Shown here in pieces: positions 5,878-39,554 of a stretch of 64,000 bases of DNA. The notes under the pieces are model-generated. The model worked only from the letters and a program-made list of their open reading frames with translations, was not told the DNA's origin and made no database searches. Origin of the DNA: Chloroflexota bacterium (GTDB lineage: Bacteria; Chloroflexota; Anaerolineae; Anaerolineales; Anaerolineaceae); contig JAMCRR010000096.1 of NCBI GenBank assembly GCA_023381565.1, positions 61,942 to 125,941 on the forward strand. The letters run 5' to 3'. Position 1 is the first letter of the stretch; each line of letters starts with the position of its first letter. The position numbers and the translations under genes are program-made.

Positions 5878-5992
5878 AGATTGAGTTACATGCCTTCTGA
5901 GGATTTGAACCGGGTGGGATAACCAAGGTGTGATGAGAATATTGCATATTCAGGAGAGAGGGGAAACGTGATTATGGTCAGGAGGCAAATCT

Positions 5993-6901: not shown

Positions 6902-6925
6902 TAACCGGAGGATGAAGGACATTCC

Positions 6926-18642: not shown

Positions 18643-18937
18643 GTTTACTACCCTTATGTACAAGATATGTAGATTATATGCGATTTTCGGTTGAGAATTG
18701 AATTGCTCACCCCATATCTTTATGTTAGAATTTATTCAGGCTAAGATCGGTGGTCGTCGCAAATTTGCCTGCGGCGGCGTCGAGCTCGCAAGCTCGCCAA
18801 ATAGGACTGGATTCCGACAGCCTTGTGGAGACCCTGGCAGATTATACTCGGCAAGTCGAGCACGACATGCTGGTTATCTCCAGGGATTTCTTTTGTATGC
18901 AGGTGGGTGAGATTTCAATCATGAGGATCATCAGGCT

Positions 18938-19632: not shown

Positions 19633-20985
19633 ATGTTAATTACTAACGCTACCCTGATCACTTGGGAAAAACCGAATCGCATCTTGCCAGATCACGCGTT
19701 GTATATCCGAGACGGGAAGATCGTTGAAATCGGCCCTCAATCCACGCTGGCTTCCCGCCATCCGCAAGAGGAGCTCCTGGATGCGCGAGGGCAGTTCGTG
19801 ATGCCGGGGAATATCTGCGCCCACACCCACTTTTACGGCGCATTTTCGCGGGGTCTGGCTATCCCTGGACCGGCCCCAAAGGATTTCCCTGAAATCTTAA
19901 GCAAGCTTTGGTTCGCATTAGATAAATCGTTAACGTTGGAAGATGTGCGCTACTCGGCGTTGGTCTGCTTGATTGACGCTATCCGTCATGGGACGACCAC
20001 GCTGGTCGACCATCATGCATCACCGAATGCAATCGAGGGGTCTCTGGACGTGATTGCCCAGGCCGTTGATGAATCTGGGGTGAGAGCCGCGCTATGCTAT
20101 GAGGTCACTGACCGGGATGGGAAGGAAAAGGCGCGCCGCGGTATCGCCGAAAACCTGCGTTTTATCGAGCGGGTAAAGCGAGAACACCCTGCGGGAGGGC
20201 GGTTGGCTGCCACCTTCGGATTACACGCCAGCCTGACATTAACAGAAGAGACGCTGGCGGCCTGCCGGGAGGCGGCTCCCAAGGATGTGGGCTTCCACAT
20301 CCACGTCGCCGAGCATCCTGTCGATGAGTATGACAGCCTGGCAAAATCTGGCGTGCGGGTCATCGATCGTTTGCAACGATACCAAATCTTGAACCCAAAT
20401 ACGATTATTGTCCACGCTGTACACATCGATGCACGCGAGATCTTCTTATTGGCTGAAAGCGGCGCCTGGGTAACCCACCAGCCGCGCTCGAATATGAACA
20501 ATGCTGTGGGCGTTTCAGCGGTAGAGGATTTCATGCGCGCCGGTATCCGAGTTTGCCTGGGGAATGACGGTTTTTCGAATGCCATGTGGGAGGAGTGGAA
20601 AACGGCCTACCTGGTCCATAAGCTCTGGCATTCGGACCCCCGGCGGATGAACGGGATGGATGTGGTCGAAATGGCCATATACAATAATGCTGCGCTGGCG
20701 AGCTCGCTCTTTTCGGATGGAGCGGTGGGGGTACTGGCTCCCGGAGCGCAGGCCGACCTCATCTTTGTAGATGCGCATCCTTTCACCCCCCTGACACCCG
20801 AAAATCTGCCGTGGCACATGATATTTGGTTTCCACGAGAGCATGATCACGACTACTATTGCCGCCGGCAAAGTCTTAATGCGTGACCGCCAACTACTCAC
20901 CCTGGACGAAGAAGCCATTACTCGCCGCGCCCTTGAGCTCGCGCCGTCGGTCTGGCAGCGATACAATCAGGGATTCACACGTTAA
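19633..20985 (+). CDS. ssnA: SsnA-type amidohydrolase (putative aminohydrolase of selenium-dependent Mo-hydroxylase systems)
   Basis: It has the HxH metal motif (CAHTHFYGAFSRG). It also shows extended similarity, from my recollection of E. coli SsnA, through LWFALDKSL...DHHASPNAIEGSL...RAALCYEVTDRDG...HVAE...RSNMNNAVG. It is 450 aa long. Confidence 0.75.
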   Translation: MLITNATLITWEKPNRILPDHALYIRDGKIVEIGPQSTLASRHPQEELLDARGQFVMPGNICAHTHFYGAFSRGLAIPGPAPKDFPEILSKLWFALDKSLTLEDVRYSALVCLIDAIRHGTTTLVDHHASPNAIEGSLDVIAQAVDESGVRAALCYEVTDRDGKEKARRGIAENLRFIERVKREHPAGGRLAATFGLHASLTLTEETLAACREAAPKDVGFHIHVAEHPVDEYDSLAKSGVRVIDRLQRYQILNPNTIIVHAVHIDAREIFLLAESGAWVTHQPRSNMNNAVGVSAVEDFMRAGIRVCLGNDGFSNAMWEEWKTAYLVHKLWHSDPRRMNGMDVVEMAIYNNAALASSLFSDGAVGVLAPGAQADLIFVDAHPFTPLTPENLPWHMIFGFHESMITTTIAAGKVLMRDRQLLTLDEEAITRRALELAPSVWQRYNQGFTR

Positions 20986-21061
20986 TGGTGTGGTTTACTC
21001 AGCGCTGAATTGCATGGGGTAAACGCGCATTCTAAAAATCCAATAATTTAATGGAGGGTTC

Positions 21062-21748
21062 ATGACTGAGAAGAGTTCCGAGACGACGATCCATACGATT
21101 GCGATCGTCGGAGGCACCGGAAAGGAAGGTAAAGGGCTGGCTTATCGATGGGCCAAGGTCGGTTATAACGTTTTAATTGGGTCACGGCAGCTTGAAAAAG
21201 CGCAGGCCGCCGCAGATGCGGTGCGCGCCCGCCAGGGATTATCGGGAGAAGTTGCCGGGATGGTCAACCCGGATGCGGCTGCCAGGGGAGATATTGTGGT
21301 GATGACCGTGCCGTTTAGCGCCCATCAGGATACGTTGCGCGGCTTAGTGCCCATCCTGCAAGGGAAGATCCTGGTCGATGTGACAGTGCCTATCGTTCCC
21401 CCTAAAGTCACCCGTATACAGATGCCCACCGCTGGATCGGCCTCTTTAGAGGCGCGACAAATCCTTGGGGAGGGGGTGCAGGTGGTGACTGCTTTCCAGA
21501 ATATTTCGTACGAACGGTTGTGGAATGACGAGCCGGCTGATTGTGACGTTCTGGTTTGCGGGAGCAGCAAAGCCGCACGGACGATTGTATTGACCTCCCT
21601 GGTTCAATCTATCGGCCTGGTTGGTTGGGATGCCGGACCGTTGGAGAATTCAGTCATCCCTGAGGGGTTAACGTCCATTCTCATTGGTCTTAACATACAG
21701 TATGGTGTACAATCATCTGGGATTAAGATCACCGGTATTCCGCGCTAG
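21062..21748 (+). CDS. npdG: NADPH-dependent F420 reductase (FNO/NpdG)
   Basis: It has a Rossmann N-terminus (IAIVGGTGKEGKGLAYRWAKVGYNVLIGSR), is ~228 aa long, and sits in F420 gene context. Confidence 0.75.
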   Translation: MTEKSSETTIHTIAIVGGTGKEGKGLAYRWAKVGYNVLIGSRQLEKAQAAADAVRARQGLSGEVAGMVNPDAAARGDIVVMTVPFSAHQDTLRGLVPILQGKILVDVTVPIVPPKVTRIQMPTAGSASLEARQILGEGVQVVTAFQNISYERLWNDEPADCDVLVCGSSKAARTIVLTSLVQSIGLVGWDAGPLENSVIPEGLTSILIGLNIQYGVQSSGIKITGIPR

Positions 21749-21762
21749 AGGGTATCCTTGCT

Positions 21763-22530
21763 ATGGCACTCGTCCTGACACCACTCTTAGGCATTCCACT
21801 CGTCGAAGCCGGTGACGACCTTACCGCATTTCTGCGTGACGCAGTTTTGCGGACCGGAGTACAGCCTGTGACAGGCGACATATTCGTCCTGGCGCAGAAA
21901 ATCGTTTCGAAGGCAGAAGGCAGGTTAGTAAATTTATCTCAGGTGCTGCCATCGCAAGAAGCGCGGGATCTGGCTCTCAGGAGCGAAAAAGACCCTCGCT
22001 TTGTAGAGTTGGTATTGCGAGAAAGCAACCTGGTGTTGCGTACGCGTCCTGGGACGATCATCGTGGAGCATAAGCTCGGCTTCGTCTGCGCCAATGCAGG
22101 CATCGATCATTCCAACGTTCAGGGCAGCGATGGCGCCCCCGAAGATTGGGTTCTATTGCTCCCTGAGGACCCAGATAGGTCTGCCGATCTCCTCAGGCAC
22201 AAGCTCGAAGACATCTATCAGGCTGTTCTGGGTGTCGCGATTATTGATTCACACGGAAGAGCCTGGCGAAACGGGATCACAGGCACGACGATTGGGCTGT
22301 CTGGCGTCCCCGGTCTGGTCGACATGCGTGGCAAGCCAGATCTTTTTGGTTATAAACTGCGTATCACGCAGATTGCCGTGGCCGATGAGCTGGCTGCTGC
22401 AGCATCTTTGATGATGGGACAGGCAGACGAAGGCCTGCCGGCGATCCACGTGCGCGGCTTTCCATATCCGCTGCGCGAATCTTCATCGGGAGAACTGTTG
22501 CGGCCCAAAGAGCAGGATATGTTCCGTTGA
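21763..22530 (+). CDS. cofE: coenzyme F420-0:L-glutamate ligase (stand-alone CofE, no FbiB C-terminal domain)
   Basis: It has the CofE signature (GDIFVLAQKIVSKAEGR...CANAGID.SN...IIDSHGRAWRNG). It is 255 aa long, the archaeal-type length. Confidence 0.85.
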   Translation: MALVLTPLLGIPLVEAGDDLTAFLRDAVLRTGVQPVTGDIFVLAQKIVSKAEGRLVNLSQVLPSQEARDLALRSEKDPRFVELVLRESNLVLRTRPGTIIVEHKLGFVCANAGIDHSNVQGSDGAPEDWVLLLPEDPDRSADLLRHKLEDIYQAVLGVAIIDSHGRAWRNGITGTTIGLSGVPGLVDMRGKPDLFGYKLRITQIAVADELAAAASLMMGQADEGLPAIHVRGFPYPLRESSSGELLRPKEQDMFR

Positions 22531-22548
22531 AGCGGTAAGGTGGGACCG

Positions 22549-23094
22549 ATGTATGCGATTGTATCGCTGTTAGAACCCTCAACTTACAGCCGGATCGAAG
22601 CCATGTGGAGAATCCTGGAGTTGCAATGCGGATTACAGGGAATCAAAACGACTCCTTTTCCGCATTTTTCCTGGCATGTCGCTGAGAATTACGATTTCGA
22701 TCGCGTCGAAGGGACCTTACGGCAAATCGCAGCGACCTCAAAGCCGTTTACCGTGAAGACAGCCGGTTTGGGGTTGTTTACCGGAACAGAACCGGTTATC
22801 TACGTATTAATTGTGAAGAACGAAAATTTATATCGATTCCACAATACGATATGGGAAAAAATCCACCCTAACGCTGTGGGAAGCAACGAGCATTATGCGC
22901 CAGAGGCATGGGTGCCGCATATTACCCTGGCCCACAGCGATGTCAACAGGAACACCCTAATTTGCGCTCTAGAAGAGCTGGCATTTCTCCCATTTAACTG
23001 GGAGATCAAAATAGACAATCTTGCGATCGTTGGTCAAACAGGAGAGGAAGTTGGCACCCTGCGCGACCGCATCGAATTCAACCAGAAGGAGTAA
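22549..23094 (+). CDS. 2H phosphoesterase superfamily protein (LigT/2'-5' RNA ligase-like)
   Basis: It has two HxS/TW-L type motifs (PHFSWHV and PHITLAH) at the spacing expected for 2H-fold enzymes. Confidence 0.65.
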   Translation: MYAIVSLLEPSTYSRIEAMWRILELQCGLQGIKTTPFPHFSWHVAENYDFDRVEGTLRQIAATSKPFTVKTAGLGLFTGTEPVIYVLIVKNENLYRFHNTIWEKIHPNAVGSNEHYAPEAWVPHITLAHSDVNRNTLICALEELAFLPFNWEIKIDNLAIVGQTGEEVGTLRDRIEFNQKE

Positions 23095-23101
23095 TGAAGT
23101 A

Positions 23102-23497
23102 GTGAAGTCGATTCCGGATAATTTTCAAGACCTGGTGAGCAGCCAGACAAAATCATTCGCCATGCTGGCAACCACCATGAAAGATGGTTCGCCTCAAGTA
23201 ACGCCCGTCTGGTTCAATTGGGATGGGACGCATATATTGATTAACACGGCACGCGGTCGGGTGAAGGATCGCAACATGATGGAGAGGTCTCAGGTAGCCC
23301 TCGTGATCGCAGATCCACAAAACCCATACCGCTACTTGCAAATCCGCGGAAAAGTGCTTGAGGCCAGTGAGCAAGGGGCGTGGGAGCATATCAACGAGCT
23401 TTCCTTCAAATATAATGGTAAACCTTATCCAAAGAATCCGGGAGAGGTGCGGGTGATGTATAAGATCCAACCCGAGCATATCTCGGTCTACGATTGA
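23102..23497 (+). CDS. PPOX-class (pyridoxamine-5'-phosphate-oxidase-fold) probable F420-dependent enzyme
   Basis: The sequence LATTMKDGSPQVTPVWFNWDGTHILINTARGRVKDRN...YLQIRGK is typical of the PPOX-class F420/FMN-binding split-barrel fold. The GTG 23102 start lies 9 nt after AAGGAG. Confidence 0.7.
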   Translation: MKSIPDNFQDLVSSQTKSFAMLATTMKDGSPQVTPVWFNWDGTHILINTARGRVKDRNMMERSQVALVIADPQNPYRYLQIRGKVLEASEQGAWEHINELSFKYNGKPYPKNPGEVRVMYKIQPEHISVYD

Positions 23498-23551
23498 ATG
23501 GTCGGGCAGGGGAAGTAATTAATTGATTTAGTCATCGTGAGGTAGAGTTCA

Positions 23552-24499
23552 GTGATTTCAAAAGTGGTTGCCCTGGCTGGAGGCGTTGGCGGCGCAAAAC
23601 TGGCAGATGGGCTCTACCGGTGTTTAGCGCCCGGAGATTTATCTGTTATCGTTAATACTGCGGATGATTTTGTGCATTATGGGCTGAACATCAGCCCGGA
23701 TTTGGACACCGTTTGCTATGCCCTGGCGGGCTTGGCCAACCCAGAGACCGGATGGGGGCGAGAAGGCGAAACCTGGCAGGCCATCCATAATGCGGTGCAG
23801 CTGGGTGGTCCGGATTGGTTTAATTTGGGAGATCGCGACCTGGGAACTCATCTCGAGCGGACTCGCCGGTTGAGGCAGGGGGATCTCCTGAGTGAGATCA
23901 CGTCAGATTTTGCACGTGCCTGGGGGATTTCTGCGAATATTTTTCCCATGAGCAATGACCTTGTGGCGACCATGGTCAGCACAGTGGATGATGGAGAGCT
24001 TCCCTTCCAAGAATATTTCGTAAAACGTGGTTGTGAGCCGCGCGTGACGGGATTCAGATTTGCCGGCATCGAAACGGCGAGACCTGCGCCATTCATGTTG
24101 GAGGCCATTGAAGGCGCGCAAGTAGTTGTCATTTGCCCATCCAATCCCTGGGTGAGCATTCGACCCATCCTGGACATTCCCGGAATTCGGCAGCAAATCC
24201 AGGGCAAGCACATTGTGGCGGTTTCGCCCATCATTGGGGGAAAAGCGGTCAAAGGCCCTGCAGCAAAAATGTATACTGAGCTGGGGATGACGCCTTCAGC
24301 GTCGACCGTCGCGGGACAATACGGTTCTCTATTATCCGGTTTCGTTCTCGATCGGGTAGACGGGGATCAGACCGACAAAATTCGACAGTCGGGTATAATA
24401 TCTTTTGCCACAAATACGCTGATGTCCACAGCAGAAGATCGAGAACGCCTGGCAAGCGAGGTATTGGACTTTTGCGATCGAATTATAGGAGGAAAGTAA
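23552..24499 (+). CDS. cofD: 2-phospho-L-lactate transferase (CofD/FbiA)
   Basis: It has an LAGGVGGAKL N-terminus and NTADDF, NLGDRDL and PSNP motifs. Confidence 0.9.
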   Translation: MISKVVALAGGVGGAKLADGLYRCLAPGDLSVIVNTADDFVHYGLNISPDLDTVCYALAGLANPETGWGREGETWQAIHNAVQLGGPDWFNLGDRDLGTHLERTRRLRQGDLLSEITSDFARAWGISANIFPMSNDLVATMVSTVDDGELPFQEYFVKRGCEPRVTGFRFAGIETARPAPFMLEAIEGAQVVVICPSNPWVSIRPILDIPGIRQQIQGKHIVAVSPIIGGKAVKGPAAKMYTELGMTPSASTVAGQYGSLLSGFVLDRVDGDQTDKIRQSGIISFATNTLMSTAEDRERLASEVLDFCDRIIGGK

Positions 24500-24503
24500 C
24501 TCG

Positions 24504-25130
24504 ATGAGTTTGTGGGCGATCATACCGGTAAAGCCTCTCCGGCGTGGGAAATCTCGGTTGGCAGGGGTACTATCCGAGGAAGAACGTACCTTGCTAAACT
24601 ACTCCATGCTCGGCCACACTTTGAAAACCTTGACTGCCGTACAAGAGATCGATAACATCCTGGTGATCAGCCGAGATCCAGCCGCATTGGCCTTAGCCCG
24701 TGAATATGGGGCGAAAACCTTACTCGAGGATGGCAGTCCGCATTTGAATACGGCACTAAGGCGTGCAACCGCGGTCGCCCAGGCTTATTCTGCCGAAGGG
24801 ATCTTAATCCTACCCGCAGATTTACCACTATTGACCGCAGACGACGTCCGCAATCTGATTGCCAAATCGGACAAGCCTCCGTTGATTGTAATCTCACCCG
24901 ATCGGAGGGGAGACGGCACCAATGCGTTACTGGTCATGCCCGCTGGGGCTCTCGACTATGCTTTTGGCCCCGGATCTTTTCGCAGGCACTGTGATCGGGC
25001 GGCAAAATTTGGCCTCCGGGTTGTGGTCAATGAAAATCCATCTATCGGGTTAGACCTCGATCTCCCGGAAGATTTGGAATTGTTGCGCAAGATGGAAACC
25101 ACACCGATTGATATCCGATCGGAGTTGTGA
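24504..25130 (+). CDS. cofC: 2-phospho-L-lactate (or PEP) guanylyltransferase (CofC/FbiD)
   Basis: It has a [26 protein letters not shown]-terminus and DLPLL...DGTNAL motifs. Confidence 0.85.
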
Positions 25131-25156
25131 AGATTATTTCTTTGGGAGGCACTTCA

Positions 25157-26152
25157 ATGGCTGAACGTATGGCGCTCTATCTGCAAGATGCCCACGATCT
25201 TCGGGATGGGTTAGATTTTGTCCGGTATGCTGAGCAGCACAATTTCGAAGCCGTCTGGCAAGCCGAAAGCCGCCTGGTGCGAGATGCAATTGTCCCCATG
25301 GCAGCCTACGCGGCGGTAACCGAAAAGATCAAGGTTGGTTCTGGGGTGATCAATAACTGGACCCGCAATATCGGGCTGTTGGCTGCCACCTTCTTAACCC
25401 TGGACGATCTTGCCCCAAACCGGATCATTTGTGGCATCGGCGCCTGGTGGGACCCGCTGGCTCGTGACGTAGGTATCGATCGGAAGAAACCCCTGGTGGC
25501 CATGCGTGAAACCGTCACAATTATGAGGCGGCTGCTGAATATGGAACGCGTCACATTTCATGGCGAGTATATCCACGTTGATGGGATTGAGCTCGACGTC
25601 GTCCACGGCAGGCGGTCTCCTCGGCACGTCCCGATCTTAATTGGCGCCACCGGAGACCAGATGATGGAGATGACGGGTGAGGTGGCTGACGGCGTGGTAT
25701 TGAACTACTGTGTGCCTCCTGAATATAACCATAAAGCCCTCGAGCTTTTAGAGAAGGGGGCGCGCAAATCCGGCCGTAAATTAGAAGATTTGGACCGCCC
25801 GCAGTTGATCGTCTGTTCGGTCGATCTGGACCATGACCGGGCGATTGATACCAGCCGCGAGCTGCTGACCCAATATCTGGCGCAGCAGCCGCACATCGCT
25901 AAAGCTTCGGGCGTCTCGCCAGATATTGTCGCCCAAATCCAATCGATCCTGGGTTGGCCGGCTACTCACGAGCAGATCCAATCTGCCAAGCACTTGGTGC
26001 CGGAAGATCTGGTCTTGCGCATCACCGCTTCGGGAACCCCGGATGAAGCCAGGGCAAAAGTCAAAGAATATCAGAAGAATGGATGTACCTGCCCGATCCT
26101 TTATCCTGTGGGTGGCGACGTTAGATTATTAATTGACACCTTCGCCCAGTAG
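25157..26152 (+). CDS. LLM-class (luciferase-like) probable F420-dependent oxidoreductase
   Basis: It has a luciferase-like TIM barrel ([15 protein letters not shown]..., [32 protein letters not shown]). ATG 25157 is preceded by GGGAGG. Confidence 0.75.
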
Positions 26153-26169
26153 ATTCTAACGAACTTGTG

Positions 26170-26646
26170 ATGAAGAAACAACCTACGTCTAACCATTGTT
26201 TTGTGTGCGGGCGAAAAAACCCGTTGGGCTTGCACCTGGACTTCTATGAACTGGACTCAGGCGCCGTGCAGGCTGAGATCAGCGTGCCTGATTATTATCA
26301 GGGATATCCAGGGGTGGTCCATGGGGGTGTGCTGGCCGCAATGCTCGATGAAACTATCGGCAGGGTTTTTATGACTGGAGATCCGCCACGTTTCATGTAT
26401 ACCGTTCAGCTTGCCATCCGCTACCGCAAGCCTGTGCCAACGGGTGAACCCATCCAGGTGATAGGAAGGGCAGTGCGGGATAATGGAAGAGTGGCAAACG
26501 CTGAGGGAGAAATCCTGGACGAGGCTGGAACGGTATTAGTTGAAGCGAAAGGTGTCTATGTCAATGTGCCTCAAGAAACTCTGGCATCGCTGGATGCGGA
26601 GGCACTGGGCTGGCAAGTATATCCGGGACAAGAGGAGCTGGCATGA
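26170..26646 (+). CDS. PaaI-family hotdog-fold thioesterase
   Basis: The sequence CFVCGRKNPLGLHLDF...GGVLAAMLDETIG is typical of the PaaI/YdiI hotdog fold. It shares a 4-nt ATGA overlap with the following FAD-subunit gene. Confidence 0.75.
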   Translation: MKKQPTSNHCFVCGRKNPLGLHLDFYELDSGAVQAEISVPDYYQGYPGVVHGGVLAAMLDETIGRVFMTGDPPRFMYTVQLAIRYRKPVPTGEPIQVIGRAVRDNGRVANAEGEILDEAGTVLVEAKGVYVNVPQETLASLDAEALGWQVYPGQEELA

Positions 26647-30415: not shown

Positions 30416-30449
30416 AGTTGTAGTACAAGAAATCGAGGGAAAGTAATCC

Positions 30450-31802: not shown

Positions 31803-32593
31803 TGGCGAATATTTACCGCCTGGTTCAAGAGCTCGAACAAAATGGGGAGGCCGGCGTATTATGCATGATCGTGGAAACCGAGGGCTCTACTCCACGCCAC
31901 GTGGGCAGCAAGATGCTGGTCTATCCAGACGGGCATTTTGTTGGCACGGTAGGCGGCGGCGAGGTGGAGAGCCGGGTACTCCAGGAAGCCATGCTGTCAT
32001 TGGCGGAGGATAAACCCCGCTTGCTGCGATACAAAATGATCGATCCCAATCAGGGAGACCCGGGAGTATGCGGGGGACAATTGGAGGTCTATGTGGAGCC
32101 GATCCAGCCTCGCCCGATGGTGGTTGTAGTTGGAGGAGGCCATGTAGGCAAAGCAGTGGCTCACCTGGCACGCTGGTTGAATTTTCGTGTTGCCGTTTCT
32201 GACGACCGGCCTGAGTTCTGTACGCCTGAGGCCAACCCAGACGCCGACTATTTGGTCCCCTGCCCACTGGCGGATTTGCCCAAACAGCTTAAAATTGATG
32301 GACAGACCTATCTGGTGCTGACGACGCGCGGCGCGCAGGTGGATATCGGTGGGCTGCCTGTGTTGTTGGATACCCCGGCAGCTTACATCGGCGTCATTGG
32401 GTCCAAACGACGGTGGCTGACTGCTCGGAAGGCGATGCTGGAGGCAGGCGTCCCGGAGGAAAAGCTTGTCCGCGTCCATAGTCCTATGGGGCTTGAATTG
32501 AACGTGGAAACTCCAGAGGAAATTGCTTTAAGCATCATGGCAGAAATTGTGCTGTTACGGAATGGTGGAACGGGAAAAAGCATGAAGATGTAG
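31802..32593 (+). CDS. xdhC: XdhC/CoxI-family molybdenum cofactor insertion chaperone
   Basis: It has an XdhC_CoxI N-terminal domain (VETEGSTPRHVGSKM...VCGGQLEVYVEP) and a Rossmann-like domain (VVVGGGHVGKAVAHLA). Its ATG overlaps the pyrophosphatase TGA by 1 nt. Confidence 0.85.
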   Translation: MANIYRLVQELEQNGEAGVLCMIVETEGSTPRHVGSKMLVYPDGHFVGTVGGGEVESRVLQEAMLSLAEDKPRLLRYKMIDPNQGDPGVCGGQLEVYVEPIQPRPMVVVVGGGHVGKAVAHLARWLNFRVAVSDDRPEFCTPEANPDADYLVPCPLADLPKQLKIDGQTYLVLTTRGAQVDIGGLPVLLDTPAAYIGVIGSKRRWLTARKAMLEAGVPEEKLVRVHSPMGLELNVETPEEIALSIMAEIVLLRNGGTGKSMKM

Positions 32594-32609
32594 GTTTTTG
32601 GAGGATGTA

Positions 32610-34103
32610 ATGTGGCAGGAATATATTAATGCAACGACCGTAGCAGAAGTACTATCTGTATTAGATGATCGCAGAGAACGCGTGCGGGTCGTTGCCGGCT
32701 CAACCGATTTGATCCTGGAAATCGAGAGAGGCGTGCGTAAAGGCATAGAGACTCTGGTCGACGTTACTCGCATCCCGGATCTGGACAGGATTTATAAAGA
32801 TGAAAAAGGTAGGGTACACCTGGGACCCCTGGTAACGCATAATGATGTTGTAGCATCGAAGCTTCTACGTGATACCGCCTTACCACTGGCGCAGGCAGCC
32901 TGGGAGGTTGGGTCACCCCAAATTCGTAACCGGGGTACGGTTGCCGGCAACCTGATCACTGCTTCTCCTGCTAATGATACGATCACCCCGCTGATGGCAT
33001 TAGGAGCGAGCGTAACCCTGCGCTCGATCTGCGGCGAAAGGACTGTGCCATTGAGGGAGTTTTACCTGGGCGTCCGGAAGAATGTGATGGAGCCGGATGA
33101 GATGCTCGTCGATATCTCCTTCCCGGCGTTAAAATCTCGCCAGAAGGGCCGGTTTATCAAATTCGCGCTGCGCCGTGCCCAGGCTATATCCCTGGTCAAT
33201 GTTGCAGCAATTCTCGAATTCGATGGAAAATGGGTACTGAATGCCGCCATCACTCTGGGAGCTGTTGCCCCAACGATTATTCATGCTGAAGAGGCCGAAA
33301 AATTCCTGGTGGGACGGGTTCTTGATGATGATACGATCGAGAATGCCGCTGAACGCACCATGAGGGCTGCAAAACCAATCAGTGATGTGCGCAGCTCGGC
33401 AGCCTACCGCAGCATGCTGGTGCGTGTGGTTGCACGCCGGGCATTAAATGCACTAAACGGTGGCGCGGATGTAGTTAATTTACCCGACGATCCGGTGCTC
33501 TTATCCGATCGTTCAGACGGAAATCACGCACCGGCATTTCAACGGGCAGTTGTCTCGCCCACTGCGCCAATTGTCACGCGCATCAACGGCAAGGAATATA
33601 TTTTCAAGCACGGCCACAATAAGACTTTGCTGCGGTTTCTGCGCGAGGAGGTAGGCCTGGTCGGTACAAAAGAGGGTTGTGCAGAAGGAGAATGCGGTGC
33701 GTGTACGGTCTTTCTGGACGGACAGGCGGTCATGAGCTGCATGGTCCCTGCCCCGCGCGCGCACCAGGCTGAGATCGTCACGGTGGAAGGTCTTGCGCAG
33801 GGAGACCGGCTTGACCCCGTTCAGCAGGCTTTCATTGACAAAGGCGCAGTCCAATGCGGCTACTGCACGCCCGGTTTTCTAATGTCGGCCGCGAAGCTGC
33901 TCGAAGAACGCTCTACCCCCAGCAAAGATGAAATCCGTCAAGCATTGACGGGCAACCTGTGCCGCTGCACAGGATACTACAAAATCATCGAGGCAATCGA
34001 GTCTGCTAGTGGGAGATCAACATGGGAAAATACCAGTCCTACCGAACAGATATCCGAATCGATAAGCGGAAGCTCCCCATCCACCCAGTCTGGAGAGGTG
34101 TAG
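32610..34103 (+). CDS. fused FAD-binding + [2Fe-2S] subunit of a second xanthine-dehydrogenase-family enzyme
   Basis: The N-terminus has a CoxM-like FAD domain (VVAGSTDLILE...GTVAGNL) with its C-terminal flavoprotein domain. A CoxS-like domain follows (INGKEY...GCAEGECGACTVFLDG...QCGYCTPG...CRCTGYYKI). Confidence 0.85.
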   Translation: MWQEYINATTVAEVLSVLDDRRERVRVVAGSTDLILEIERGVRKGIETLVDVTRIPDLDRIYKDEKGRVHLGPLVTHNDVVASKLLRDTALPLAQAAWEVGSPQIRNRGTVAGNLITASPANDTITPLMALGASVTLRSICGERTVPLREFYLGVRKNVMEPDEMLVDISFPALKSRQKGRFIKFALRRAQAISLVNVAAILEFDGKWVLNAAITLGAVAPTIIHAEEAEKFLVGRVLDDDTIENAAERTMRAAKPISDVRSSAAYRSMLVRVVARRALNALNGGADVVNLPDDPVLLSDRSDGNHAPAFQRAVVSPTAPIVTRINGKEYIFKHGHNKTLLRFLREEVGLVGTKEGCAEGECGACTVFLDGQAVMSCMVPAPRAHQAEIVTVEGLAQGDRLDPVQQAFIDKGAVQCGYCTPGFLMSAAKLLEERSTPSKDEIRQALTGNLCRCTGYYKIIEAIESASGRSTWENTSPTEQISESISGSSPSTQSGEV

Positions 34104-34384
34104 GATTTGTGTTGATGGTGGTTGTGCCAGTTGCTTCATATTTTGTTATGCAGGAAATCCTGGCACAGAACGCCATCCAGCACTGGTTCCAGGTGCCGCC
34201 TGAAATCCTCTCGCCCTGGGGAGATCCCCTGATTTTCGTCAAGATTTTCATCGCCCTGGTGGCAGTCGTGGTAATCTATGCCATTTTGCTGCTGGTGGCC
34301 TTTACGTATGATAAGCTTTTCGGCCCACCCCATTATGGACCGACCGATTCCCCTCCATCTGACCCAGGGGTCCACAGATCTTGA
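34022..34384 (+). CDS. small 2-TM membrane protein (hypothetical), overlapping the preceding gene by 82 nt
   Basis: ATG 34022 lies 6 nt after GGGAG. It has two clear hydrophobic helices (VGFVLMVVVPVASYFVM; IFVKIFIALVAVVVIYAILLLVAF) and a Pro-rich tail. Confidence 0.5.
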   Translation: MGKYQSYRTDIRIDKRKLPIHPVWRGVGFVLMVVVPVASYFVMQEILAQNAIQHWFQVPPEILSPWGDPLIFVKIFIALVAVVVIYAILLLVAFTYDKLFGPPHYGPTDSPPSDPGVHRS

Positions 34385-34470
34385 AGACCCCTTCAGACAA
34401 TTCGGGGGGAGACAATGGGTAATTGACCAACAGATTACCATGGTTTTATTGGTCGAACGGAGGAGTAAAA

Positions 34471-36699
34471 ATGTCATCAGTTGGGCAATCCGTTTTGCGG
34501 ATTGACGCGCGCAGTAAGGTGACCGGCGAGGCGCTTTATCCGGGTGATTTTAACCTGCCGAACCAGGCTTATATGAAGATCTTATTTGCCAGGCGCCCGC
34601 ATGCCATCATCCGGAAGATCGAGACAGCCAAAGCAGAGGCAGTCGCAGGGGTCCTTGCCGTGTTTACTGCCCGCGATGTTCCGGTGAACGAGTACGGACT
34701 GGGAATACCAGATCAGCCGGTGCTTTGCGGCCCGGGCTCGAAAAAACCCGACGCTGACCGGGTACGTTTTATCGGCGATCAGGTCGCTTTAGTGGTAGCG
34801 GAAACAGAAGAAATCGCCGAAAAAGCGCGGGATCTGATCGAAGTGGATTACGAAGACTTGCCCGTTATATCTGATCCTTTAGATGCAATCAAGGAAGATG
34901 CGCTGCTGCTGCATCCCGATCTGGGGTCAAACGTCATTTGCCACTACCAGATCCGTAAAGGCGACGTCGAAGAGGCTTTCGCCAAAGCAGATGTGATCAT
35001 TGAAGGCGAATACCATACTCCCGGCCAGGAGCATGCTTTCTTGCAGCCCGAAGCAGGGGTCAGTTATATCGACGAGGAGAACCGGGTTACGGTGGTTGTG
35101 GCCGGCCAGTGGATCCACGAGGATCAGGATCAGATCTCGCATGCCCTGGATCTGCCGCACGAGGCTGTACGGGTGATCTATCCTGCAATCGGGGGTGCAT
35201 TTGGAGGCCGCGAGGATATGTCGGTGCAGATCGTGCTTGCTCTGGCGGCTTTGCGCCTGCACCAGCGCGGCATCGACCGGCCGGTGAAGATCATCTGGAG
35301 CCGGGAGGAGTCGATTATCGGGCACCACAAGCGCCACCCTTATCTCATTCGGACGCGCTGGGGAGCAACACGCGAAGGTAAGGTGATCGCTGCAAAAGTG
35401 GACCTGCTGGCAGATGGCGGGGCTTATGCTTACACTTCCACGAAAGTGCTGGGAAATGCCACCCTGATGTGCACAGGACCGTATGAGATTCCCAACGTCT
35501 CGGTGGGGTCGTCTGTCGTGTACACGAACAATATTCCCACGGGCGCTTTTCGCGGTTTCGGAGGTCCGCAGGGGCTTTTTGCAGCCGAATCTCAGATGAA
35601 CAAGCTGGCTGAAGCGCTGAGTATGGACCCAATTGAGCTACGCATGCGCAATATCCTGCGCGATGGATCGCTTCTTTCGGTTGGGACGCCATTGCCCGGA
35701 AAAGTGACTCTCGACCAGGTGACCGAGCAGTGTGCCCAGGCCGGAGGCTGGAAAAAGACCGACAAGGGCTGGACCAAACCAGACGGTTTGCGGATCGATC
35801 GAGCGAGAGAAAATCAAAACCCGTCCGTGAAACGGGGGGTGGGGTTTGCCACCGGCTATAAGAATGTCGGTTTCTCTTTTGGCGCAGTGGAAAGCTGCTG
35901 GGCAACGATCGAGTTGAGAGGCGGCTCTGAAATTGAGGAGGCTGTCTTGCATCACGCCGGCGCAGATGTTGGGCAGGGGGCGCATACCGTCTTTGTCCAG
36001 ATGGCGGCTGAGGCGTTGGGCGTGCCGGTTGAAAAAGTCCACCTGATTGCTTCGGATACGGCCACCAGTGATAATTCGGGGAGCGCATCGGCCTCACGCA
36101 TGACCTACATGGCGGGGAATGCGATCCGGGGAGCGGCGCAAATCGCTTTGGAAAAGTGGGAGAACGAGGAGCGTCCTGCAGTTGGGAGATTTGAATTTCA
36201 TCCTCCGGCGACGACCCCTTTCGATCCACAAACCGGTTTTTCAAAACCAAACTTCGCGTACGGCTACGTGGCTGAAATTGCTGAGGTTGAAGTTGACGTC
36301 GAGACCGGGCAGGTGCATCTGCTGAATGTTATCTGTGTAAACGATGTGGGCAAGGCGATCAATCCGGAGCTGGTTAAGGGACAGGTGGAAGGGGCCGTTG
36401 TTCAGGCCGAGGGATATACGATCCTGGAAAACATCGTTCAAAAAGACGGTTATTGCCTCACGCCGGGCCTGTCCACCTATCTGATACCGACCATCGTGGA
36501 TATCCCCGAGCAAGTCGAAACCCATCTCCTGGAATACGCCGATAGCGGCGGACCTTTTGGGGCACGTGGCATGGGAGAAATGCCTCTCTTGCCGCTGGCG
36601 CCGGCAATCACGGCGGCGGTGCATTCGGCGATCGGGGTATGGATCGATTCTTTCCCCCTGACGCCAGAGCGGGTCCTGACTGCCATCAAGGAAAAATAG
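34471..36699 (+). CDS. molybdopterin-binding large subunit of a xanthine-dehydrogenase-family hydroxylase
   Basis: Family motifs are present: KVTGEALYPGD, IGGAFGGRED, TGAFRGFGGPQ and GMGEMP with the catalytic-type Glu. ATG 34471 is preceded by GGAGG. Confidence 0.9.
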   Translation: MSSVGQSVLRIDARSKVTGEALYPGDFNLPNQAYMKILFARRPHAIIRKIETAKAEAVAGVLAVFTARDVPVNEYGLGIPDQPVLCGPGSKKPDADRVRFIGDQVALVVAETEEIAEKARDLIEVDYEDLPVISDPLDAIKEDALLLHPDLGSNVICHYQIRKGDVEEAFAKADVIIEGEYHTPGQEHAFLQPEAGVSYIDEENRVTVVVAGQWIHEDQDQISHALDLPHEAVRVIYPAIGGAFGGREDMSVQIVLALAALRLHQRGIDRPVKIIWSREESIIGHHKRHPYLIRTRWGATREGKVIAAKVDLLADGGAYAYTSTKVLGNATLMCTGPYEIPNVSVGSSVVYTNNIPTGAFRGFGGPQGLFAAESQMNKLAEALSMDPIELRMRNILRDGSLLSVGTPLPGKVTLDQVTEQCAQAGGWKKTDKGWTKPDGLRIDRARENQNPSVKRGVGFATGYKNVGFSFGAVESCWATIELRGGSEIEEAVLHHAGADVGQGAHTVFVQMAAEALGVPVEKVHLIASDTATSDNSGSASASRMTYMAGNAIRGAAQIALEKWENEERPAVGRFEFHPPATTPFDPQTGFSKPNFAYGYVAEIAEVEVDVETGQVHLLNVICVNDVGKAINPELVKGQVEGAVVQAEGYTILENIVQKDGYCLTPGLSTYLIPTIVDIPEQVETHLLEYADSGGPFGARGMGEMPLLPLAPAITAAVHSAIGVWIDSFPLTPERVLTAIKEK

Positions 36700-36702
36700 T
36701 AA

Positions 36703-37515
36703 ATGCCTTTAACAATCCTTATCCGTGGCGGCGGCGACCTGGCAAGCGGGGTTGCTATCCGCCTGGTGCGAGCCGGTTGGCGAGTACTTGTCACCGAATT
36801 GCCCCAACCATTAACCGTGCGCCGCCTGGTCTCCTTTTCTGAAACCGTATACGATGGCGAGTTCACACTCGAAGGGGTGCAGGCGAAATTGGCCGGAGAT
36901 GCGGCTGAGGCGATGGATCTCATGAGAAATGGCCTCCTGGCAGTCCTGGTGGACCCTCCGGTCGAAGCGCGTTTCGTGATTCACCCCCACGTGATCATCG
37001 ATGGCCGTATGACCAAGCACCCACCAGACCTGCAAATGGATGCCGCTTCAATGGTGATTGGCCTGGGGCCTGGATTTAACGCTGGAGAGAACTGCCATGC
37101 CGTAATCGAGACCATGCGCGGCCACTTCCTGGGGCGGGTGATCTGGCAAGGAGAAGCTGAGGCGGATACCGGGTTGCCTGAAACGGTTGCCGACCACCAG
37201 GCCGACCGGGTGCTGCGTGCCCCGTGCGACGGGAGAGTCGTGGCACTGGCAAAGATCGGAGACCAGGTGGAGCAAGGCCAGGTGCTCGCAGAAGTAGGCG
37301 GTCAACCGGTGAGAGCTGCATTTCGCGGAGTGTTGCGGGGATTAATTCACGAGGGTCTGGTCGTCCCTCAGGGGTTGAAGATCGGGGATGTCGATCCTCG
37401 CCTGGACCCGCGCCTTTGCACCCTGGTTTCTGACAAAGCTCTGGCGATTGGCGGCGGCGCCCTCGAAGCTATCTTATCGAACCGGGATTTAAGACCCCTT
37501 TTGTGGGATAAATGA
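36703..37515 (+). CDS. yqeB: YqeB-family selenium-dependent molybdenum hydroxylase system protein
   Basis: The N-terminus ILIRGGGDLASGVAIRLVRAGWRVLVTELPQPLTVRRLVSFSETVYDG matches my recollection of the YqeB (EF2563) family. It sits in the conserved position before yqeC. Confidence 0.7.
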   Translation: MPLTILIRGGGDLASGVAIRLVRAGWRVLVTELPQPLTVRRLVSFSETVYDGEFTLEGVQAKLAGDAAEAMDLMRNGLLAVLVDPPVEARFVIHPHVIIDGRMTKHPPDLQMDAASMVIGLGPGFNAGENCHAVIETMRGHFLGRVIWQGEAEADTGLPETVADHQADRVLRAPCDGRVVALAKIGDQVEQGQVLAEVGGQPVRAAFRGVLRGLIHEGLVVPQGLKIGDVDPRLDPRLCTLVSDKALAIGGGALEAILSNRDLRPLLWDK

Positions 37516-38840
37516 ACCTGGTAAAAGCTCTGCGGATCGACTCTCGCTCCAGAATGGCTTTGGTTGGGGCGGGTGGCAAAACCACGGCGCTCTTCCGCCT
37601 GGGAGACGAGCTGCCTCCACCTGTGCTTCTGACGGCAACGACCCACCTTGGAGAGAGCCAGGTTGCTCAAGCCGGTCGTCACGTGATCGCTACCCGGGTC
37701 GACCAGATACAAGCGCTGCAAGACAACCTGACCGATACCCCCATCCTGGTCACCGGGCCATTCGGTCCGGATGGGCGAACTCTTGGCCTGGATGCGCCAG
37801 TGCTCGATGCACTGAAATCCCTGGCTGACGATAAGAATCTCCCCTTGTTGATCGAAGCCGACGGCTCGCGGCAGCGACCGTTGAAAGCGCCTGCCGAGCA
37901 CGAGCCTGCAATCCCTGGATGGGTGAGCCAGGTTGTGGTTGTCGCCGGGCTTTCCGGGTTAGGGAAACCGTTAGGGCCAGAATGGATCCACCGTCCGGAG
38001 ATCTTCGCTGCCCTGACCGGGATGAAAATGGGCAAACCGGTATCCCCCGAAGCGCTCGGCACCCTGCTGGCGCACCCGCAGGGCGGATTAAAGCATATAC
38101 CGGCAAGAGCGCGAAAAATCGCCTTGTTAAACCAGGTAGATCATCCGGAAGCGAAAAATCAGGCAGAGGCATTGACGCCCGCGCTGCTGGAAAACTACTC
38201 GGCTGTCGTAATAGCCCGATTAGAAAACGAGCCCGAGAGCGAAGTGCTTTCTGTTCGAGAGAGGATTGCGGGAATTGTATTGGCGGCGGGGGAATCCAGG
38301 CGGTTGGGGCAACCCAAACAGCTTTTGCTATGGCGAGGAGAGCCTCTGGTGCGACACGTGGTTCGCATCGCGCTAGAGGCGGGGCTGAAGCCGGTGGTTG
38401 TGGTTACAGGAGCGGAGGCAGGGGTGGTGTCTGATGCGCTGCAGGCGCTGCCGGTGAGCCTGGTCGATAACGCGGAGTGGGCGAGCGGGCAGAGCAGCTC
38501 AGTGCGCAGGGGGATTGGCGAGCTTAGTGTGGAGGTAGGAGCTGCAATATTCCTGCTATCGGACCAGCCCCAGGTGCCGGTAAAACTGATCGAACAGCTT
38601 GAAGTTGCGCATAGCCATTCATTGTCGGCAATAATCGCTCCAAAAGTTGGTGAACGCCGGGCGAACCCGGTGTTGTTCGACCGGTCGGTGTTCTCAGCAC
38701 TGGCTCAAGTGAAGGGAGATATGGGCGGCAGGGCAATCTTCGACCAATACCCGGTCGAATGGGTTGATTGGAAAGACCCCAGCCTCCTACTGGACGTGGA
38801 TACTCCTGAGGATTACGCGCGTTTGAGGGAAATCGAGTGA
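37512..38840 (+). CDS. fusion of YqeC-family selenium cofactor accessory protein and MocA-like molybdenum cofactor cytidylyltransferase
   Basis: About 250 N-terminal aa are YqeC-like (LVGAGGKTTALFRL...LIEADGSRQRPLKAPAEHEPAIP...LLNQVD). About 190 C-terminal aa form a MobA-like NTP transferase (IVLAAGESRRLGQPKQLLLW...DQPQV...DVDTPEDY). It shares an ATGA overlap with yqeB. Confidence 0.75.
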   Translation: MNLVKALRIDSRSRMALVGAGGKTTALFRLGDELPPPVLLTATTHLGESQVAQAGRHVIATRVDQIQALQDNLTDTPILVTGPFGPDGRTLGLDAPVLDALKSLADDKNLPLLIEADGSRQRPLKAPAEHEPAIPGWVSQVVVVAGLSGLGKPLGPEWIHRPEIFAALTGMKMGKPVSPEALGTLLAHPQGGLKHIPARARKIALLNQVDHPEAKNQAEALTPALLENYSAVVIARLENEPESEVLSVRERIAGIVLAAGESRRLGQPKQLLLWRGEPLVRHVVRIALEAGLKPVVVVTGAEAGVVSDALQALPVSLVDNAEWASGQSSSVRRGIGELSVEVGAAIFLLSDQPQVPVKLIEQLEVAHSHSLSAIIAPKVGERRANPVLFDRSVFSALAQVKGDMGGRAIFDQYPVEWVDWKDPSLLLDVDTPEDYARLREIE

Positions 38841-38862
38841 CCTCAGTACCGGACTTAATCCC

Positions 38863-39450
38863 TTGCAGGTAGGCGCTATCGTTCTCGCAGCAGGGCTATC
38901 GCAGCGTATGGGCAGACCCAAAATGCTGCTGCCGTGGGGCCAGACGACCGTTCTTGGGCAGGTGGTCGCGACCCTCAGTAAGGCCGAATTGGGAGAGATT
39001 CTGGTGGTCGGGGGTGGAATGTCCATGGAGATTGCGGCAGGCTTAGACGGCACACCTGCACGCCTGGTCTTAAACCCGGATTATGCCAATGGCGAGATGC
39101 TGTCTTCACTGCAAGTTGGGCTGGCAAACCTTAATGGAGATTGCCAGGCAGCTTTGATTGTCCTGGGCGACCAGCCTCAGATTGAGCTGATTGTGGTGCA
39201 GGCGGTGCTGCGTGTCTGGGATCAAGAGCCGGGCAGCCTGGTTGTGCCGAGCTACAAACTCCGGCGCGGCCACCCCTGGCTGCTGCCACGCAGCATGTGG
39301 GCTGAAATTTTTTCGCTGCAGGCTCCTGCGACGCTACGTGATTTTCTCAACGCTAAAGGTGTGGAGATCCATTATGTGCCGGTCGATACGCCCAGTATCC
39401 ATATTGACCTGGATACGCCTGAGGATTATCGGCAGTACAAACCTGGATAA
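38863..39450 (+). CDS. mocA: MocA-like nucleotidyltransferase (molybdenum cofactor cytidylyltransferase), second copy
   Basis: The sequence IVLAAGLSQRMGRPKMLLPWG...LGDQPQI...DLDTPEDY matches the family. The start is TTG and its position is approximate. Confidence 0.75.
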   Translation: MQVGAIVLAAGLSQRMGRPKMLLPWGQTTVLGQVVATLSKAELGEILVVGGGMSMEIAAGLDGTPARLVLNPDYANGEMLSSLQVGLANLNGDCQAALIVLGDQPQIELIVVQAVLRVWDQEPGSLVVPSYKLRRGHPWLLPRSMWAEIFSLQAPATLRDFLNAKGVEIHYVPVDTPSIHIDLDTPEDYRQYKPG

Positions 39451-39493: not shown

Positions 39494-39554
39494 GGATTAG
39501 GATTTCTTGAGATAATCCAATGGAGGCTGACCAGGCAAATAATCAAACCATGGG

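Follow-up and report, generated by a model that had tools for sequence, protein, structure and literature searches.

A probable Chloroflexota variant of the upper reductive uric acid route, encoded together with molybdenum cofactor and putative selenium maturation genes in an Anaerolineaceae genome

In Escherichia coli, the XdhD-YgfM enzyme reduces uric acid to 2,8-dioxopurine with NADH, with Glu606 of XdhD having been proposed as a specificity determinant that orients urate; YgfK and SsnA then dearomatize and cleave the ring, and XdhABC acts before XdhD-YgfM (PMC12507026). An independent preprint describes the same pathway in Clostridium sporogenes and E. coli (bioRxiv 10.1101/2025.04.24.650524). 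In Chloroflexota, SsnA neighborhoods contain a luciferase-family (PF00296) putative F420-dependent reductase instead of YgfK/UacX, and this enzyme has been discussed as an F420-dependent yanthine reductase (PMC12507026). Separately, YqeB and YqeC together are held to define a selenium-cofactor trait (Haft & Self 2008; Peng et al. 2016). In the current study, we analyzed a stretch of 64,000 nucleotides (hereafter, the window) from a Chloroflexota bacterium of the Anaerolineaceae (GenBank assembly GCA_023381565.1, contig JAMCRR010000096.1, positions 61,942 to 125,941 of the forward strand). Positions 18938 to 39450 of the window hold an array of 20 co-directional genes on the + strand (ca. 20 kb; Table 1), among them genes for two molybdenum hydroxylases of the xanthine dehydrogenase (XDH) family, for SsnA, for F420 biosynthesis, and for maturation of the molybdenum cofactor (Moco). 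Comparison with described systems makes it rather probable that this array specifies the upper part of the reductive uric acid route together with a Moco/selenium maturation set, in its Chloroflexota form. It is a lineage variant of a pathway already flagged in the literature, not a new kind of system.

Markers and families were called by scanning the window proteins against NCBIfam/TIGRFAM models, at their trusted cut-offs, and against Pfam, and the E. coli K-12 reference region was compared with the window by tblastn and BLASTP using K-12 proteins (E. coli SelD by tblastn). Relatives were collected by scanning the XdhD-like fusion enzyme against one genome per GTDB species, which returned more than 570 of them; the best 80 were examined as stretches with 10-kb flanks around the fusion gene (the related loci), and all window proteins were searched against these by tblastn. 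All genes named in the original prediction, which had been made from the letters of the DNA and its open reading frames (ORFs), are present where it had placed them, on the + strand.

The array is tightly packed. Intergenic gaps do not exceed 77 bp, several neighbors overlap by 4 nucleotides, and from cofD through the FeS/Mo fusion gene there are only 4-nucleotide overlaps or gaps of at most 15 bp. In about 20 species the genes follow the same order, SsnA-Fno-CofE-CofD-CofC-luciferase-family (LLM) enzyme-hotdog protein-FAD subunit-FeS/Mo fusion and, continuing, pyrophosphatase-XdhC-FAD/FeS fusion-two-helix membrane protein-second Mo subunit-YqeB-YqeC/MocA-MocA. Since this order is kept even though typical array proteins are only 45 to 65% identical between relatives, and despite insertions of methyltransferase and sensor genes in some related loci, we regard the array as an operon-like unit. 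Where the locus extended at least 8 kb upstream of that gene for the fusion protein (58 loci), the FAD subunit was found in 47, the hotdog protein in 40, the LLM enzyme in 28 and SsnA in 24; among the 50 with at least 9 kb downstream, the corresponding figures were 46 for XdhC, 40 for the pyrophosphatase, 22 for the second Mo subunit and 17 for YqeB. A scan of the array for sigma-70 promoters and terminators yielded as many of them as expected from shuffled sequence and is uninformative on operon limits.

The Chloroflexota origin that had been predicted for the DNA is borne out by the best 80 relatives of the fusion enzyme, which are 69 to 77% identical to it and come almost entirely from Chloroflexota/Anaerolineales metagenome-assembled genomes, including the genera Anaerolinea, Bellilinea, Leptolinea, Brevefilum and Villigracilis. 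The array is also present in uncultured Anaerolinea metagenome-assembled genomes. The Logan assembly of run SRR10278331 contains 12 kb of identical sequence. One related locus (L078, JBLMZU010000373.1) is binned as Bacteroidota; its fusion enzyme is 69% identical, like those of the Anaerolineales loci, and the assignment is probably a binning error rather than a gene transfer.

The first hydroxylase (enzyme 1) consists of a short FAD subunit and an FeS/Mo fusion protein. By BLASTP, the fusion protein aligns with residues 1 to 954 of the 956 residues of E. coli XdhD at 36.6% identity, and the FAD subunit is collinear with YgfM residues 1 to 243 of 259 (28 to 30% identity); the two genes overlap by 4 nucleotides, as do ygfM and xdhD in E. 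coli. The active sites were aligned with segments of bovine XDH and Eubacterium barkeri nicotinate dehydrogenase (NDH) recovered from PDB alignments. In bovine XDH numbering, the fusion protein and XdhD have in common Gln802, His873, Thr876, Asn880, Tyr914 and Tyr1078; both also have position 1009 deleted and the catalytic Glu in place at 1261. The fusion protein also has a loop particular to XdhD (AWSEGREPKP), in which E635 aligns with Glu606 of the E. coli enzyme; this loop is absent from XdhA, bovine XDH, NDH and the second hydroxylase of the array. Among the tblastn matches in the related loci, the loop position is occupied by Glu in 86 cases and by Lys in 6, with a gap in 3. Based on these features, we propose that enzyme 1 is a probable uric acid/2,8-dioxopurine oxidoreductase. 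We call it XdhD-type and not an XdhD equivalog, because the cut-offs of TIGR03313 and TIGR03312 were missed. An assignment of enzyme 1 to the clostridial 2,8-dioxopurine dehydrogenase (DOPDH) type (TIGR03311) was considered and ruled out by score and by active-site residues. In some related loci, a gene for a CcrM-like adenine DNA methyltransferase lies between the FAD-subunit and fusion genes (L005, 8800 to 9984; L044, 5906 to 7030) and breaks this otherwise overlapping pair.

The second hydroxylase (enzyme 2) is made up of a fused FAD-FeS subunit and a separate Mo subunit. The best NCBIfam model for the latter is that of pucD (TIGR03196, 582 against a cut-off of 783), and its closest PDB entry is E. 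barkeri NDH (3hrd, 295 bits, N-terminal half). Residues Q229, E264, F379, F484 and E719 correspond to bovine Gln767, Glu802, Phe914, Phe1009 and Glu1261. Because of this partial XDH active site, and because XdhABC precedes XdhD-YgfM in E. coli, the most economical reading is that enzyme 2 is a probable xanthine/hypoxanthine-type dehydrogenase. In its fused subunit, present in 29 of the 50 downstream loci, the FAD domain comes first and two [2Fe-2S] domains follow, which is the reverse of XdhA-type small subunits; owing to this reversal, TIGR02963 matches the protein in two separate stretches.

Between the two genes of enzyme 2 lies a short ORF whose product has two strongly hydrophobic helices. 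The gene is kept in this position in at least 30 loci, and the protein has the motifs HPxWRGxG and P..YGP.D.PP, with P22, W24, G28 and P111 invariant. A profile search returned 1041 proteins, all of them hypothetical and without a Pfam domain, the named ones coming from Chloroflexi. The ORF is a real gene, and its product is a candidate membrane partner of enzyme 2. In several relatives, a DUF6909 gene (PF21850, ca. 750 bits) is inserted between the two-helix ORF and the second Mo gene (L006, 17210 to 18916; L013, 17078 to 18841; L030, 19137 to 20999); it is absent from the window, and a literature search found no mention of DUF6909.

The substrates of both enzymes could also lie outside purine metabolism, with nicotinate, pyrimidines, pterins/lumazines or a 4-hydroxybenzoyl-CoA-like compound taking the place of purines and urate. 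The closest PDB structure to enzyme 1 is in fact 4-hydroxybenzoyl-CoA reductase, as that to enzyme 2 is NDH, and a gene for a PaaI-type hotdog thioesterase directly precedes those of enzyme 1. However, the PDB ranking is biased, because no structure has been solved for E. coli XdhA or XdhD. When the NCBIfam models are compared instead, the XdhD-type and XdhA models score 689 and 684 bits, respectively, on enzyme 1, against 545 bits for 4-hydroxybenzoyl-CoA reductase (TIGR03194), and we rejected the latter identity because of this lower score and the XdhD-specific loop. The XdhD-like active-site set likewise argues for urate, as does the presence in the array of SsnA (33% identical to E. coli SsnA over its full length), which is a marker of uricolytic clusters; in one related locus (L011), a HyuA homologue (41% identity) is encoded directly upstream of nudix-ssnA. 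Taking both sides together, we consider a nonpurine substrate distinctly unlikely.

Several observations nevertheless weigh against the assignment of the array to urate and purine breakdown. TIGR03313 scores 689.5 on the fusion protein against a cut-off of 1101.9, and TIGR03312 scores 63.3 on the FAD subunit against 241.5. Indeed, all equivalog models for the hydroxylases fall below their cut-offs, and orthology of function is not established because the XdhD-, YgfM-, PucD- and MocA-like proteins all do so; the MocA, YgfM-like and XdhD-like calls of the original prediction are to be corrected in this respect. In enzyme 2, Asn345 occupies the position of Arg880, which orients xanthine. Neither a purine transporter nor a guanine deaminase nor any downstream uricolytic enzyme is encoded in the window, which, with SsnA and one arguable XdhD homologue out of seven pathway proteins, falls short of the four-of-seven rule used in the preprint (bioRxiv 10.1101/2025.04.24.650524). 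Finally, no purine or Moco riboswitch was detected in the whole window at the gathering score or upstream of ssnA at an E value of ≤1, and the window gave no other regulatory hint of the substrate.

CofC, CofD, CofE and Fno all score above curated cut-offs, whereas none of the window ORFs scanned by family models is an Fo synthase (CofG/H or FbiC). The original prediction had described these F420 genes as a block separating ssnA from the hydroxylase genes. The block is indeed there, but its gene overlaps, its conservation and the proposal made in PMC12507026 speak against its being a mere separator. Its genes run in the same direction as the hydroxylase genes and are conserved with them, 4-nucleotide overlaps join cofC to the LLM gene and link the hotdog, FAD-subunit and FeS/Mo fusion genes, the hotdog gene adjoins the FAD-subunit gene in 40 of 58 loci, and a replacement of YgfK by an F420-dependent enzyme had already been proposed. 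For these reasons (co-direction, overlaps, conservation and the earlier proposal), we regard the F420 block as probably part of the pathway, and we infer that the LLM enzyme is a candidate F420H2-dependent 2,8-dioxopurine reductase that would substitute for YgfK.

It may be, however, that the F420 genes are unrelated to the hydroxylases and represent a housekeeping operon for the F420 tail, together with a Mer-like one-carbon (C1) enzyme, in a slowly rearranging neighborhood; the reductase feeding SsnA would then be encoded elsewhere or be of an unrecognized type. The closest PDB entries to the LLM enzyme are Mer structures (methylene-tetrahydromethanopterin reductases; 125 bits), and no other array protein is as well conserved (74 to 88% identity across Anaerolineales, mean 81%), the catabolic ones far less so. 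An accessory catabolic enzyme is not usually conserved to this extent, which would also suit a central or housekeeping role in C1 metabolism. Moreover, cofC, cofD and cofE are general biosynthetic genes, and neither molybdenum enzymes nor purines are connected with F420 in a comprehensive review of this cofactor. Nothing relevant on F420 was found in a study of deep-sea Chloroflexi. Against such an accidental neighborhood stand the close packing from cofD through the fusion gene and the order kept in about 20 species despite insertions, as well as the joint gain and loss of SsnA and the LLM enzyme. Counting the window, 22 loci span the interval completely; the two occur together in 19 of these and are both missing in 2 that keep the cof genes and the hydroxylase, while the LLM gene occurs without SsnA in 1 (L030); this co-occurrence is suggestive only, because the loci are not phylogenetically independent.

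The related loci also contain what could be an exchange of one reductase for another. In L026 (4670 to 8672), a gene for an 834-amino-acid GltD/YgfT/YgfK-like plus PreA-like (dihydropyrimidine dehydrogenase [DPD]-like) reductase stands at the position of the missing LLM gene, and the next gene encodes an SsnA of a second type, with 42% identity to that of the window. The DPD-like reductase is found in six related loci (L006, at 4366 to 8367, L010, L019, L026, L035 and L036) and adjoins SsnA in L006, L010, L019 and L036. Four relatives, however, combine a DPD/YgfK-like reductase beside SsnA with an LLM gene, which fits an LLM enzyme with a separate role. The inference of an F420-dependent step was also drawn independently, from an SsnA-centered neighborhood network (PMC12507026). 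On balance, we view an unrelated F420 block as somewhat unlikely, although it is the strongest of the competing explanations, and favor its participation in the pathway.

Turning to cofactor maturation, YqeB, YqeC and SsnA, the three assignments on whose trusted cut-offs the original prediction had staked its reading, all score above them. The yqeC gene overlaps yqeB by 4 nucleotides, and two complete XDH-family enzymes are encoded within 10 kb of yqeB. The MocA model TIGR03310 (cut-off, 186.45) was not reached by the C-terminal half of the YqeC fusion (155.8) or by the second MocA-like protein (153.9); PF12804 is clear in both, at 117.6 and 112.7 bits, respectively. E. coli YqeB (541 amino acids) combines an XdhC-like half and a YqeB-specific half, which the window holds as two genes 4 kb apart: its XdhC is 35% identical to E. 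coli YqeB residues 2 to 259 and its YqeB 46% identical to residues 271 to 524. This split arrangement can be set against the one in L082 (16615 to 18240).

From these marker genes only, we infer that both hydroxylases would be selenium dependent. The difficulty lies with selD. With E. coli SelD as the query, tblastn (E ≤ 1) gave no match in either the window or any of the 80 related loci, nor was selD found among the remaining window ORFs scanned by family models, an absence from the window that the original prediction had already reported. TIGR03309 has been reported only from selD-positive genomes, though, in which a large distance between selD and yqeB is typical if the organism uses selenocysteine as well (PMC2276186, Haft & Self 2008). 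According to Peng et al. 2016, Anaerolinea thermophila UNI-1 and Caldilinea aerophila possess SelD, SelA, SelB, YqeB and YqeC, whereas an oral Chloroflexi bacterium possesses SelD, YqeB and YqeC only. The trait is thus already catalogued in the lineage, and selD is likely encoded elsewhere in this genome. The 64-kb window contains no tRNA (tRNA-Sec included), and a scan of the window for in-frame TGA read-through yielded ordinary gene junctions only, with no selenoprotein gene.

The same enzymes and pathway might instead operate with a sulfido Mo ligand, with YqeB (as an XdhC-type chaperone partner) and YqeC (as a P-loop-like factor) being general helpers of Moco maturation that deliver no selenium. 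The absence of selD from the surroundings of the cluster, in the window and in the 80 loci, fits such a view. So does the finding that, in Clostridioides difficile, deletion of yqeC had no phenotype, the biochemical roles of YqeB and YqeC not being established (PMC11448449); single homologues may serve selenium-independent processes (Peng et al. 2016), no known active-site residue separates selenium from sulfur enzymes (bioRxiv 10.1101/2025.04.24.650524), and the study of the NADH-dependent XdhD-YgfM enzyme names selenium in its reference list only (PMC12507026). Here, however, YqeB and YqeC are both present, both above trusted cut-offs, in a lineage where the cultured relative A. thermophila has them alongside SelD, SelA and SelB. 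The clostridial enzymes, furthermore, require SelD: C. difficile cannot do without either yqeB or selD when using urate/xanthine (PMC11448449), and the DOPDH of C. sporogenes is inactive if purified from a selD mutant (bioRxiv 10.1101/2025.04.24.650524). We therefore consider sulfido enzymes served by selenium-independent helpers unlikely and retain selenium dependence as the preferred interpretation.

How the parts might work together can be outlined as follows. Enzyme 2, composed of the FAD-FeS fusion, the two-helix protein and the Mo subunit, would act as an XDH-like hydroxylase that feeds urate into the route. Enzyme 1 would interconvert urate and 2,8-dioxopurine, as extrapolated from its homology to XdhD-YgfM, whose activity is known from E. 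coli. The LLM enzyme, and possibly the PPOX-class enzyme, would then dearomatize 2,8-dioxopurine with F420H2 in place of YgfK/UacX, the F420 being completed by CofC, CofD and CofE and reduced by Fno with NADPH. SsnA, assigned here by family membership and in function by its E. coli counterpart, would open the ring, and the later steps (HyuA, YgeW/UacY and YgeY, as well as YgeX) would be encoded elsewhere. For cofactor supply, the two MocA-like enzymes would make the cytosine dinucleotide form of Moco and XdhC would insert it, while YqeB and YqeC, going by their marker status, would supply the labile selenium ligand, drawing on selenophosphate from a SelD encoded elsewhere in the genome.

The pyrophosphatase, which had been predicted to be embedded in the array along with the small membrane ORF (both are), may drive the nucleotidyl transfers of MocA forward, and likewise the pyrophosphate-releasing CofC reaction. 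In 40 of 50 loci, its gene is found downstream of that for the fusion protein; the PRK14869 models give it at most 306 bits, below their cut-offs. It also occurs in loci that, in the stretch examined, have no F420 genes, SsnA or second enzyme.

A more ambitious version would make the array a self-contained, F420-driven, selenium-dependent uricolytic unit in which the LLM enzyme is an F420H2:2,8-dioxopurine reductase, interchangeable with DPD/YgfK-type reductases as the replacement in L026 could indicate, and in which the two-helix protein tethers enzyme 2 to the membrane, a tethering that would couple purine oxidation to membrane electron transport; DUF6909 accompanies the two-helix protein in some relatives. 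We regard this combination as a doubtful one that is unlikely to hold in every part.

Anaerolineales are abundant in sediments, digesters and groundwater. If our interpretation is correct, environmental members of this order share the gut-type chemistry of anaerobic urate/purine degradation, with a dearomatizing step that runs on F420 and with a probable need for selenium. This would widen the selenium-cofactor trait as well as the range of physiological roles that F420 has in bacteria. The array would then be a compact, conserved operon from which to obtain a candidate F420-dependent 2,8-dioxopurine reductase. The claim of novelty for the lineage was overstated, as three SelD-, YqeB- and YqeC-positive Chloroflexi are listed by Peng et al. 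2016. Both the selenium trait in this lineage and the idea of an F420-dependent reductase are already in print as bioinformatic observations; what the present analysis adds is a detailed anatomy, figures on conservation and some side observations (a family of two-helix proteins, the replacement of the LLM gene by a DPD-like one, XdhC and YqeB as separate genes, YqeC fused to MocA, and conservation of the pyrophosphatase), but no new concept.

At the edges of the array, membership is less clear. The divergently oriented M20 gene keeps the same position in 7 related loci; its product is 22% identical to E. coli YgeY at the N terminus only and does not belong to the YgeY family. It is a possible downstream ureido/amide hydrolase, and its membership in the cluster is uncertain. 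In 7 related loci, the Nudix-like gene immediately precedes ssnA or npdG. Within the array, the 2H phosphoesterase gene is variable, being found in only 5 related loci, and the true start of the PPOX-class gene is probably downstream of position 23094. The downstream end is marked by a full-length match to the glmS ribozyme (RF00234) at 39550 to 39765 on the + strand (E = 5e-6), in the 437-bp gap just upstream of glmS (39887 to 41728); it is missed at the gathering threshold because it scores 32.8 bits against 37. Far upstream, 16 kb from ssnA, a LysR regulator gene (2793 to 3734, - strand) adjoins a DUF362 protein gene (1446 to 2669). With the "selenium metabolism-associated LysR" model NF040786, the regulator reaches 241 bits (cut-off, 250), and no selenium gene was found beside it.

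Table 1. Genes of the array and the divergent gene next to it, with window positions and the principal family matches (score vs cut-off where both apply)
Product	Position	Strand	Basis
M20-family dipeptidase-like protein	17227..18663	-	NF006053, 491 vs 441; divergent from array
Nudix-hydrolase-like protein (first array gene)	18938..19567	+	Weak NCBIfam Nudix matches
SsnA amidohydrolase	19633..20985	+	NF005540, 507.7 vs 444; TIGR03314, 475.5 vs 455.5
NpdG/Fno, NADPH-dependent F420 reductase	21062..21748	+	TIGR01915, 192.7 vs 149.8
CofE, F420-0:L-glutamate ligase	21763..22530	+	TIGR01916, 257.3 vs 180.65
2H/LigT-like phosphoesterase	22540..23094	+	PF13563, 52.5 bits
PPOX-class (FDOR-B type) F420-dependent oxidoreductase	23021..23497	+	TIGR03618, 94.9 vs 79.05, aa 40-154
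CofD, 2-phospho-L-lactate transferase	23552..24499	+	TIGR01819, 305.5 vs 257.45
CofC, 2-phospho-L-lactate guanylyltransferase	24504..25130	+	TIGR03552, 170 vs 105
Mer-like luciferase-family (LLM) F420-dependent oxidoreductase	25127..26152	+	Mer/LLM F420 NCBIfam models, all below cut-offs
Hotdog-fold (PaaI-type) thioesterase	26167..26646	+	TIGR00369, 42.8 vs 36.6
YgfM-like short FAD subunit, enzyme 1 (254 aa)	26643..27407	+	PF00941, 78 bits; without CO_deh_flav_C
XdhD-like 2x[2Fe-2S]+Mo fusion, enzyme 1 (1003 aa)	27404..30415	+	Fer2_2, Ald_Xan_dh_C, MoCoBD_1/2
CBS-DHH-DHHA2 (family II) inorganic pyrophosphatase	30450..31802	+	Pfam DHH, CBS, DHHA2
XdhC-type Moco insertion chaperone	31799..32593	+	PF02625, PF13478
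FAD + 2x[2Fe-2S] fusion subunit, enzyme 2	32610..34103	+	PF00941, PF03450, Fer2, Fer2_2
Small two-helix protein (ca. 120 aa)	34022..34384	+	No Pfam/NCBIfam match
Mo subunit, enzyme 2	34471..36699	+	Ald_Xan_dh_C, MoCoBD_1/2; ATG preceded by GGAGGAG
YqeB	36703..37515	+	TIGR03309, 313.6 vs 220; 255/256 model positions
YqeC-MocA-like fusion	37512..38840	+	N-half TIGR03172, 160.9 vs 73.05, and PF19842, 118 bits; C-half PF12804 (NTP_transf_3)
Second MocA-like Moco cytidylyltransferase	38863..39450	+	PF12804, 112.7 bits

Of the systems with which the array can be compared, the NDH of E. barkeri (3HRD) is a structurally defined selenium-containing Mo hydroxylase. It has the AFRGFG motif in common with enzyme 2, but the positions of Glu802 and Arg880 are occupied by Leu and Arg, respectively, in NDH and by Glu and Asn in enzyme 2. 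The Mo protein of NDH consists of two chains, and its substrate is nicotinate. The clostridial selenium-dependent DOPDH (XdhAC) and XDH, from C. sporogenes, C. difficile and C. purinolyticum, are likewise XDH-family enzymes, serve anaerobic purine breakdown, and depend on SelD and YqeB. Like enzyme 1, DOPDH is an FeS+Mo fusion; in contrast to enzyme 1, no FAD subunit belongs to it, and NAD(P)H is not used by DOPDH. The active-site changes reported for it are F1009V and A1078T/S, whereas enzyme 1 has the deletion at 1009 and Tyr at 1078, and its model (TIGR03311; cut-off, 830) scores only 459 and 436 bits in the window.

The surveys of Haft & Self 2008 and Peng et al. 2016 found YqeB and YqeC encoded beside molybdenum hydroxylase genes, as they are in the window, but recorded presence and absence only, without locus architecture or a link to F420. 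The Chloroflexota variant of PMC12507026, in which SsnA occurs with XdhA/XdhD homologues and a PF00296 reductase, is matched by the window. That study gave no gene-level description and did not mention cofC, cofD, cofE, Fno, YqeB/YqeC, the pyrophosphatase, the second enzyme or the membrane protein; it described Chloroflexota as being without YgfK/UacX-type reductases, whereas six of our related loci carry a DPD-like one.

The comparison with the E. coli K-12 neighborhood (xdhABC ... yqeB-yqeC-mocA-ygfK-ssnA-ygfM-xdhD) brings out both departures and likenesses. As had been predicted, the window lacks ygfK, selD, hyuA, ygeW, ygeX, ygeY and carbamate kinase genes (yqeA query) in tblastn searches with the K-12 proteins (for all except selD, at E ≤ 1e-3 with meaningful coverage). 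It differs further from E. coli in that YqeB is split into XdhC and YqeB genes, YqeC is fused to MocA, and the array holds F420 biosynthesis genes, Fno and two F420-dependent oxidoreductases; identities to the K-12 proteins are 29 to 46%, and the TIGR03312 and TIGR03313 cut-offs are not reached. The original prediction had also counted a second complete enzyme among the departures, which does not hold because E. coli has xdhABC in the same neighborhood. The likeness that it had drawn to the K-12 region is otherwise sound, the window having counterparts of yqeB, yqeC, mocA, ssnA, ygfM, xdhD and xdhABC. Thus, E. coli and the window have in common SsnA, YqeB, YqeC, MocA and a second XDH-family enzyme, together with the 4-nucleotide overlap of the ygfM and xdhD genes, the active-site signature and the Glu606 loop.

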